Made by a program: the position numbers and the translations under genes
Part shown: piece after piece, positions 43,442-43,671 of the stretch
Numbering within the stretch: position 1 is the first letter of the stretch
How the letters are laid out: the number at the start of each line of letters is the position of its first letter
The notes under the pieces: model-generated
Database searches by the model: none
What the model was told of the DNA's origin: nothing
What the model saw: the letters and a program-made list of their open reading frames with translations, nothing else
Assembly (NCBI RefSeq): GCF_003334815.1
Contig: NZ_QOWO01000002.1
DNA length: 64,000 nucleotides
Strand: one strand, 5' to 3'
From: Escherichia coli
Lineage (GTDB): Bacteria; Pseudomonadota; Gammaproteobacteria; Enterobacterales; Enterobacteriaceae

Positions 43442-43468
43442 ATCCTTTTCAGCCGCGTATTGGCTTGT

Positions 43469-43486
43469 TTGCAAAGCGGATGCCAG
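43469..43486 (-). promoter_or_regulatory. sigma-54 (-24/-12) promoter of the rut operon
   Basis: Reverse complement reads CTGGCATCCGCTTTGCAAA, i.e. TGGCAT-N5-TTGCA, matching the TGGCAC-N5-TTGCA consensus about 30 nt upstream of the rutA start. Confidence 0.6.
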
Positions 43487-43549
43487 TTTTTAAAAAGTTA
43501 ATGTTATTAATCTGTTAACATTACGTTATCTAAAATATCTGGTAAAAAG

Positions 43550-43565
43550 TGGACTAAACGGTCAA
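43550..43565. promoter_or_regulatory. candidate RutR operator (imperfect palindrome) in the rutA-rutR intergenic region
   Basis: TGGACTAAACGGTCAA (reverse complement TTGACCGTTTAGTCCA) resembles the RutR consensus TTGACCAnnTGGTCAA. Confidence 0.4.
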
Positions 43566-43671
43566 AACAGTTGCACATAAAACATGCATCTGTGCGCGAT
43601 GAGAGTGCAGAAGGTCGAGGCCGGGCGGGGGTTTTGCTATCCTGTTGCCAATCTACAAGAGGGGAGAGCGC

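Follow-up and report, generated by a model that had tools for sequence, protein, structure and literature searches.

Conservation of the regulatory elements in the divergent rutA–rutR region of Escherichia coli and evidence for a 363-residue RutA

Introduction

RNA polymerase containing sigma-54 requires an ATP-dependent activator. The glnAp2, glnHp2 and astC promoters of the Ntr regulon (see also the tables of PMC4591121 and PMC8743547) carry −24/−12 elements with GG and GC at the canonical spacing, as does the promoter of the rut operon (rutABCDEFG), which encodes the breakdown of pyrimidines. Dyads of the TGCACC-N5-GGTGCA type, paired at approximately −120 and −140 and putative at rut, are also common to these promoters and rut, as is induction by nitrogen limitation. 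Two features set the rut locus apart from the other Ntr promoters: the DNA between enhancer and promoter is bound by RutR and ArcA-P, and the spacer also holds a divergent sigma-70 promoter, from which the repressor gene is transcribed.

The RutR box of carAB, TTGACCATTTGGTCCA, is the highest-affinity RutR target. The same 16-bp semi-palindrome, a dimer of the TetR family and release by uracil are found at carAB and at rut. The action of RutR on carAB is positive: from −184.5 it counteracts a different repressor. At rutA/rutR, by contrast, a single box represses both divergent units; the match to the consensus is 13/14 at carAB and 11/14 at rutA. The multi-direct-repeat operators of ArcA-P (Park et al., 2013) share TGTTA-type repeats, an 11-bp centre-to-centre spacing and a three-repeat architecture with the rut site. 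The rut site, unlike the ArcA sites that cover the −35 and −10 elements of sigma-70 promoters, is directed at a sigma-54 promoter and lies upstream of the −24 element. At the RNA level, the CsrA-bound leaders of glgC and flhDC and the repeats of CsrB have the CAGGA(U/A/C)G motif and the potential for a short-stem hairpin in common with the rutA leader, and two GGA motifs lie near the 5' end in both flhDC and rutA. However, the rutA leader has no GGA over its Shine-Dalgarno sequence and its sites are very closely spaced, so that this is a resemblance only and not membership in the class.

Published experiments cover sigma-54 binding, RutR binding with autoregulation, and ArcA binding, and the central features of this spacer (the rut promoter recognised by sigma-54 and the operator of RutR) were already in the literature. 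The contribution of the present analysis is the element-by-element conservation and the evidence on the start codon. Taken together, the rutA/rutR spacer can be described with high confidence as a compact multi-input control region, most of which had been described before.

Materials and Methods

The window denotes the whole stretch of E. coli DNA that was analysed (64,000 nucleotides). Positions are those of the window, and signed distances are relative to the predicted transcription start of rutA. The comparison set consisted of 80 orthologous loci, with the window included, and represented about 20 genera within the Enterobacterales. One locus was without the rutA 5' end, which left 79 loci for the promoter count. 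The conservation statistics given below are inflated by kinship among the compared loci.

Results

The divergent rutA–rutR locus

The rutA–rutR stretch was present at an identity of at least 90% in 5,422 of 5,426 complete E. coli genomes, and at an identity of at least 95% in all but 16; rutA and rutR were the names annotated for it in those genomes. The gene order in the K-12 record was rutB, rutA, rutR and putA, and the window was thus assigned to the E. coli chromosome. The RutR equivalog model NF011584 covered residues 1–212 of the 212 rutR residues (E = 8e-140), and the RutA equivalog model TIGR03612 scored 726 bits against the rutA product. The K-12 gene order and these two matches bore out the initial annotation of a divergent rutA–rutR region. 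The spacer between the two genes was 287 bp, and a divergent rutR homologue was found in 77 of the 80 loci. When the Enterobacteriaceae sequences were anchored on the −12 element, discrete conserved islands appeared with variable sequence between them. The features of the region are collected in Table 1.

Table 1. Positions of the features in and around the rutA–rutR spacer (window coordinates)
Feature	Position	Strand	Basis or remark
rutA CDS, best supported	42293..43384 (stop included)	-	363 aa, MKIGVF
rutA 5' leader, about 75 nt	43385..43459	-	includes the 57 nt annotated in K-12 as rutA codons 1–19
Shine-Dalgarno GAGG	43391..43394	-	6 nt upstream of ATG 43384
Conserved leader core, GGA (43445..43443) then G-CAGGAU-GC-A-GCG-CCC-CGT	43421..43446	-	contains ATG 43441..43439
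rutA transcription start, predicted	43459	-	12 nt downstream of the C in the −12 GC
Sigma-54 −24/−12 element of rutABCDEFG, TGGCATCCGCTTTGCA	43470..43485	-	sequence, conservation, ChIP-seq, gSELEX
ArcA-P site, three direct repeats, ATGTTATTAATCTGTTAACATTACGTTATCTA	43501..43532	+	ChIP, conservation
RutR operator (RutR box), TGGACTAAACGGTCAA on + and TTGACCGTTTAGTCCA on -	43550..43565	.	ChIP-chip, EMSA, mutants, ITC
Proximal NtrC-type dyad, putative, TGCACATAAAACATGCA	43572..43588	.	centre about −121
Distal NtrC-type dyad, putative, TGCGCGATGAGAGTGCA	43593..43609	.	centre about −142
rutR CDS	43672..44310	+	212 aa, TetR family; K-12 and PGAP annotations agree

The sigma-54 promoter of rutA

The minus-strand sequence around the rutA promoter and leader reads AAAAACTGGCATCCGCTTTGCAAACAAGCC. 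Its −24/−12 element, TGGCAT-CCGCT-TTGCA, has the exact spacing between the GG at −24 and the GC at −12 when compared with TGGCAC-N5-TTGCA. The pattern TGGCAYN5TTGCW matched the 64-kb window only at this element. Nevertheless, 29 of 100 shuffled sequences had at least one match (0.33 matches expected), so the uniqueness of the pattern is by itself weak evidence. In the comparison set, exactly one TGG[CT]A[CT]-N5-T[TC]GC[AT] was found in the 450 nt upstream of rutA in each of the 79 loci, and in most of them it was 79–94 nt away from the MKIGVF start codon. The sequence CTGGCATCCGCTTTGCA was given for rutA by sigma-54 ChIP-seq (peak OS10; PMC4591121), and a peak of the genomic SELEX carried out with RpoN holoenzyme falls in the rutA/rutR spacer (PMC8743547).

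The sigma-54 promoter claimed in the initial annotation was hence upheld by the 79 loci, the ChIP-seq and the genomic SELEX. The range then assigned to it, 43469..43486, contained the element together with one extra flanking base on each side. The distance of about 30 nt to the ATG at 43441 was right and is exactly 30 nt when counted from the C of the −12 GC (43471). According to the standard geometry of sigma-54 promoters, rutA transcription would begin at about 43459. Park et al. (2013; PMC3798270) entered "no TSS" for rutABCDEFG, and no mapped 5' end of rutA was found in the literature searched.

A second sigma-54 site was noted elsewhere in the window. The sequence CCGGCATGAACAATGCG at 37877..37893 (+) corresponds to OA02, which Bonocora et al. 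(2015) classed as an "intergenic antisense" site in their sigma-54 ChIP-seq data. This site is situated immediately beyond the 3' end of a large ORF on the minus strand (37941..39383, probably rutG) and is oriented into that ORF.

The RutR operator and the NtrC-type dyads

The palindrome at 43550..43565, with its centre at about −98, matched the RutR consensus TTGACCAnnTGGTCAA at 11 of 14 positions. At the same stringency, four matches were found in the window and 2.7 were expected, so the palindrome by itself is not above chance. A RutR-type box with at most three mismatches was present in 74 of the 80 loci, window included. Moreover, Shimada et al. (2008; PMC2475637) list the identical 16-mer TGGACTAAACGGTCAA (11/14) as the rutA intergenic site in their ChIP-chip table, report high-affinity binding in gel shifts (EMSA) and name box positions 4 and 13 as critical. 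Position 4 is A and position 13 is T in the rutA box on either strand, and both match. Four substitutions in this box made rutR expression operator-constitutive, with loss of autoregulation, and the box sits downstream of the rutR transcription start (PMC4325133). A KD of 44 nM was obtained by ITC for "boxrutA", the RutR-binding DNA upstream of rutAG (PMC10891134). The candidate RutR operator proposed earlier was therefore confirmed by these three studies and by the 74 loci, and its coordinates were exact. Conservation and the published experiments are the grounds on which both the sigma-54 element and the RutR palindrome are taken as real.

Further upstream, two dyads absent from the initial annotation were found. 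Each matched TGCACC-N5-GGTGCA at 9 of 12 positions, and their separation was 21 bp. The window contained 27 NtrC-type matches against 36 expected, so each dyad alone is at chance level. The proximal dyad was conserved in the Enterobacteriaceae with the consensus TGCCTGTTTTnTGTGCA, and TGCAC-N7-GCGCA was found at about −141 in most of the Enterobacteriaceae loci compared. An NtrC-type dyad occurred at about −150 in many loci of the Erwiniaceae and Yersiniaceae. The expression of rut is NtrC-dependent (PMC4325133, PMC10891134). The portion of the NtrC genomic SELEX supplement that was consulted did not list rutA or rutR, and the main text of Brown (2014) makes no mention of rut. The two dyads are most likely NtrC sites, given where they lie, their pairing and conservation, and the known dependence of rut on NtrC.

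The arrangement of these elements followed a regular pattern. The centres of the RutR boxes fell at −106 ± 1 (38 boxes), −97.5 ± 1 (28 boxes) and −87.5 ± 1 (11 boxes), and these three positions were about 10 bp apart, that is, in steps of about one helical turn. The upstream NtrC-type dyad moved with the RutR box, from about −141 to about −150. This joint shift indicates that the spacing inside the enhancer–operator module is maintained and that its distance to the promoter changes in whole turns.

Another RutR-type sequence, TTGACCATTTTGTCCA, was observed at 15859..15874 (+). It matched the RutR consensus at 12 of 14 positions with positions 4 and 13 intact, which is better than the rutA operator, and according to the K-12 offset it falls inside gfcD. 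This site is absent from the 20 published ChIP-chip targets; RutR binding inside genes is known.

The ArcA site and the rutR promoter

A three-repeat ArcA site that had already been published was missing from the initial annotation. Among the ArcA ChIP peaks, rutR/rutA is one of the stronger ones, with an enrichment of about 36, and rutABCDEFG is classed as ArcA-repressed; the ArcA box is atgttattaatctgttaa (19.1 bits), and the three-repeat site is ATGTTATTAATCTGTTAACATTACGTTATCTA (Park et al., 2013; PMC3798270). The site is 32 nt long and centred at about −50. The conserved island at about −57 to −40, with the sequence TGTTAttaatcTGTTA when read on the strand of rutR, occurs nowhere else in the window. 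Within it, TGTTATTAATCTGTTA (TGTTA-N6-TGTTA, 43502..43517) was likewise unique in the window, where 0.09 occurrences were expected. With at most one mismatch, the TGTTA repeat was found at −50 in 29 of the 80 loci, compared with 1.1% of shuffles, and its conservation was confined to the Enterobacteriaceae. An IHF site in this AT-rich block was considered and rejected, because the match made by eye had one mismatch at the most conserved base and the block is the published ArcA site.

The ArcA site probably overlaps the sigma-70 promoter of rutR. A sigma-70 promoter scan over 43300..43800 gave no match, which indicates that the rutR promoter is weak by consensus. As a guess from the bases, TAAAAT at 43531..43536 might be an element of this promoter, a placement consistent with the RutR box being downstream of the rutR start.

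The same ArcA ChIP study lists ArcA boxes for putA and putP, which by offset-converted coordinates would fall in the putA–putP spacer (window ~48370..48590), some kilobases beyond rutR on its right side.

The start codon of rutA

Three in-frame starts were compared for rutA. The frame from TTG 43474 encodes 393 aa and that from ATG 43441 encodes 382 aa, and the facts reported earlier on these two ORFs (the 382-codon start and the longer frame) were correct. The initial annotation had favoured 43441 over 43474 and had not considered the downstream ATG at 43384. Its rejection of TTG 43474 was sound, since this codon lies inside the −12 element and upstream of any transcript made from the sigma-54 promoter. 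The choice of 43441 was not supported, and the evidence favoured the ATG at 43384, which is 57 bases downstream.

The family model, the ribosome-binding sequences and the reading frame were in agreement on this point. Positions 1–354 of TIGR03612 aligned to residues 20–373 of the 382-aa form, so that the family begins at MKIGVF. A GAGG was located 5–8 nt upstream of the MKIGVF ATG in 76 of the 80 loci, whereas the ATG at 43441 is preceded by AGGA at a distance of only 1 nt. In 49 of the 80 loci, a stop codon closed the rutA frame inside the transcribed leader. The median ungapped identity to E. coli was 0.37 in the 57 nt upstream of ATG 43384 and 0.82 in the 57 nt with which the coding sequence begins. 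Of the 85 coding-sequence differences that separate two E. coli lineages, 78 fell at third positions, as against 1 of 5 in the extension (Fisher p = 0.0006). One of the differences in the extension changed CGA to TGA (window 43405..43403). The leader allele bearing this TGA was identical in 15 complete E. coli genomes, in all of which rutA was still annotated.

The curated K-12 record annotates RutA as 382 aa, and this form was also used for PDB entry 5wan. If the K-12 annotation were right, the 382-aa protein would be translated from ATG 43441 behind a leader of 18 nt. The frame is indeed open from 43441 in most E. coli, and an equivalent ATG recurs in several Enterobacteriaceae. However, in many genera this ATG was in frame 1 or 2 with respect to rutA or was followed by a stop codon. 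The TGA in the leader of the 15 E. coli genomes and the lack of third-position bias in the extension also spoke against the longer protein, as did the family model and the spacing of the two purine-rich motifs described above. Furthermore, PGAP annotated 363 aa with a start at 43384 in all seven PGAP-annotated E. coli records examined. PDB entries 6sgg and 6sgl correspond to 363/364 aa; since both forms are represented in the PDB, these entries show only that both constructs fold. The 382-aa reading is hence considered very unlikely, and the start of rutA is placed, with a high degree of probability, at ATG 43384. Some minor use of the ATG at 43441 may occur.

An additional ATG at 43385..43387 (−), directly upstream of the MKIGVF ATG, would give MMKIGVF (364 aa, as in PDB 6sgl). 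Among the loci compared, this codon was ATG only in Escherichia and in one Leclercia locus and was GTG or a non-start codon in other genera. ATG 43387 is therefore probably not the conserved start, although it is inseparable from 43384 by the present data.

Two variants of the leader were observed in E. coli. The lineage with the TGA allele (L083, L004 and 13 more genomes) came from pigs, pets and humans, with several hosts and countries represented. Its leader had four other changes, and its promoter, RutR box and NtrC-type dyads were unchanged. In E. coli KFu015 (NZ_CP147130.1), an IS1B element was inserted in the rutA leader directly before GCAGGATGCAG, which is equivalent to window ~43439. 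The insertion parts rutA from the sigma-54 promoter by about 0.8 kb and breaks the 382-codon frame, and PGAP annotates the rutA of this strain with 363 aa.

A conserved core in the rutA leader

The ATG at 43441 sits in a conserved non-coding leader motif and probably does not serve as a rutA start. The core G-CAGGA-N-GCA-NN-GC-NN-CG was found at +15 to +39 in about 60 of the 80 leaders, in three families, and ranged from Escherichia to Serratia and Rahnella. CAGGANG was present in 60 of the 80 leaders, compared with about 2.4 in shuffles. The conservation of the core was the opposite of that of a coding sequence, with synonymous positions invariant and non-synonymous positions variable.

The alternative that ATG 43441 opens a conserved upstream ORF, whose leader peptide (MQDAAPR...) is coupled to or regulates rutA translation, was explored. 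The peptide M-Q-D-A-A-P-R occurred in several genera in different frames with respect to rutA, an ATG, GTG or TTG in phase was present in 36 of the 61 loci with the core, and some of these ORFs ended in an ATGA or TGATG overlap with the rutA start. Nevertheless, the third base of "codon" 4 was invariant (41/42), and bases 1 and 2 varied freely. CAG and GCA were never exchanged for synonymous codons, and the G before CAG was invariant whatever the codon. The start position was occupied by CCG in 11 loci and by TAG in one, with the core kept, and the GGA resembling a Shine-Dalgarno sequence was 0–3 nt from the putative start. The leader peptide was rejected because conservation was at the level of nucleotides and not of codons and the start codon was absent in many genera; its probability is low, hardly above that of the 382-aa protein.

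The motif was then considered as a target in its own right, that is, as a non-coding element. The presence of a known RNA family was ruled out for both spacer and leader, since the Rfam search gave two chance-level matches only (E = 2.7 and 8.7). A stable RNA structure of the leader was also rejected. The predicted fold of the E. coli leader was no more stable than those of shuffles (z = +1.28). A closing stem was recovered both by RNAalifold and in a separate test; its RNAalifold energy was only −1.68 kcal/mol, a single pair covaried (G-C in 38 sequences, A-U in eight), and two inner pairs were mostly broken. One tentative reading is that another factor, for example, a roadblock repressor or an sRNA, recognises the core as an operator in DNA or as a target in RNA. 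The discrete conserved bases in the three families and the weak outer stem with its covarying pair are consistent with such a target, but the core did not match any of the regulator consensus sequences considered, and the folding results and the empty Rfam search do not favour it.

A reading of similar, rather modest probability is that the core is a candidate binding site for the RNA-binding regulator CsrA. The CsrA motif is GGA in a CAGGA(U/A/C)G or RUACARGGAUGU-like context, and CsrA prefers GGA in the loops of short hairpins and bridges sites that are 10–63 nt apart (PMC7652899). The core is identical to the repeat of CsrB, CAGGA(U/A/C)G, with CAGGAUG in E. coli, and a short stem that presents A-GGA-N could be formed by the invariant G-C/G-C on its flanks. 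In 56 of the 60 leaders, another GGA was located 9–13 nt upstream of CAGGANG; however, this distance falls at the bottom of the bridging range. The mean probability of being unpaired was 0.69 for the core GGA versus 0.48 for the leader as a whole. In the minimum-free-energy folds of 57 leaders, the core GGA was unpaired in 30 and in a hairpin loop in only 24, so that folding supports the CsrA reading in part. The Shine-Dalgarno sequence of rutA (GAGG), over which the second site of a pair would typically lie, is without GGA, and this speaks against CsrA. In vivo, CsrA cross-links to rutR mRNA, and no CsrA peak on rutA was present in the same CLIP-seq data (PMC5694010). The rut operon was probably silent in those cultures, so the missing rutA peak would be uninformative. 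Moreover, rutA was absent from one published prediction of CsrA targets.

The CLIP-seq peak on rutR lies inside the coding sequence, at window ~43958..44134 (+), equivalent to K-12 1074528..1074704 (Potts et al., 2017). Such a peak would connect the rut regulon with the Csr system.

Discussion

The elements described above can be combined into a scheme for the control of rut. The rutABCDEFG operon is transcribed leftward from the sigma-54 promoter, with a start predicted near 43459. Under nitrogen limitation, NtrC-P bound to the dyads at about −121 and −142, which are separated by 21 bp, would act as the activator of the sigma-54 polymerase. By looping of the DNA, it would reach the polymerase bound at −24/−12 and lead to the formation of the open complex.

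RutR and ArcA-P are two repressors sited between the enhancer and the promoter. RutR binds at about −98, approximately 7 bp from the proximal dyad, and is released by uracil. Through the same box it also represses rutR, because the box is just downstream of the rutR start. In the absence of oxygen, ArcA-P binds the three direct repeats, which take up about 30 bp beside the −24 element, and turns the operon off, and an anaerobic shut-off by ArcA-P fits an oxygen-dependent monooxygenase. Both repressors probably block expression by hindering the NtrC oligomer or the looping between enhancer and promoter. The whole-turn phasing classes of the RutR box (−87, −97 and −106) fit a geometric constraint on such looping. 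Translation of rutA would begin at ATG 43384 behind the conserved GAGG, with ATG 43441 in the untranslated leader. The whole scheme, namely an NtrC-activated sigma-54 promoter repressed by RutR and ArcA-P and followed by a 363-aa rutA, is regarded as highly probable.

The 19 extra N-terminal residues of RutA in the K-12 record are without comparative support, and this matters for cloning or modelling the enzyme. A CsrA site in the leader, if true, would explain both the conservation of the ATG at 43441 and the mistaking of this codon for the start of rutA. The conserved GGA element is cheaply testable for CsrA control. Although this remains a doubtful proposal from the analysis of the leaders, the dual-GGA element might place pyrimidine catabolism under post-transcriptional control by the Csr system, which responds to carbon status, in addition to the control by NtrC, RutR and ArcA.
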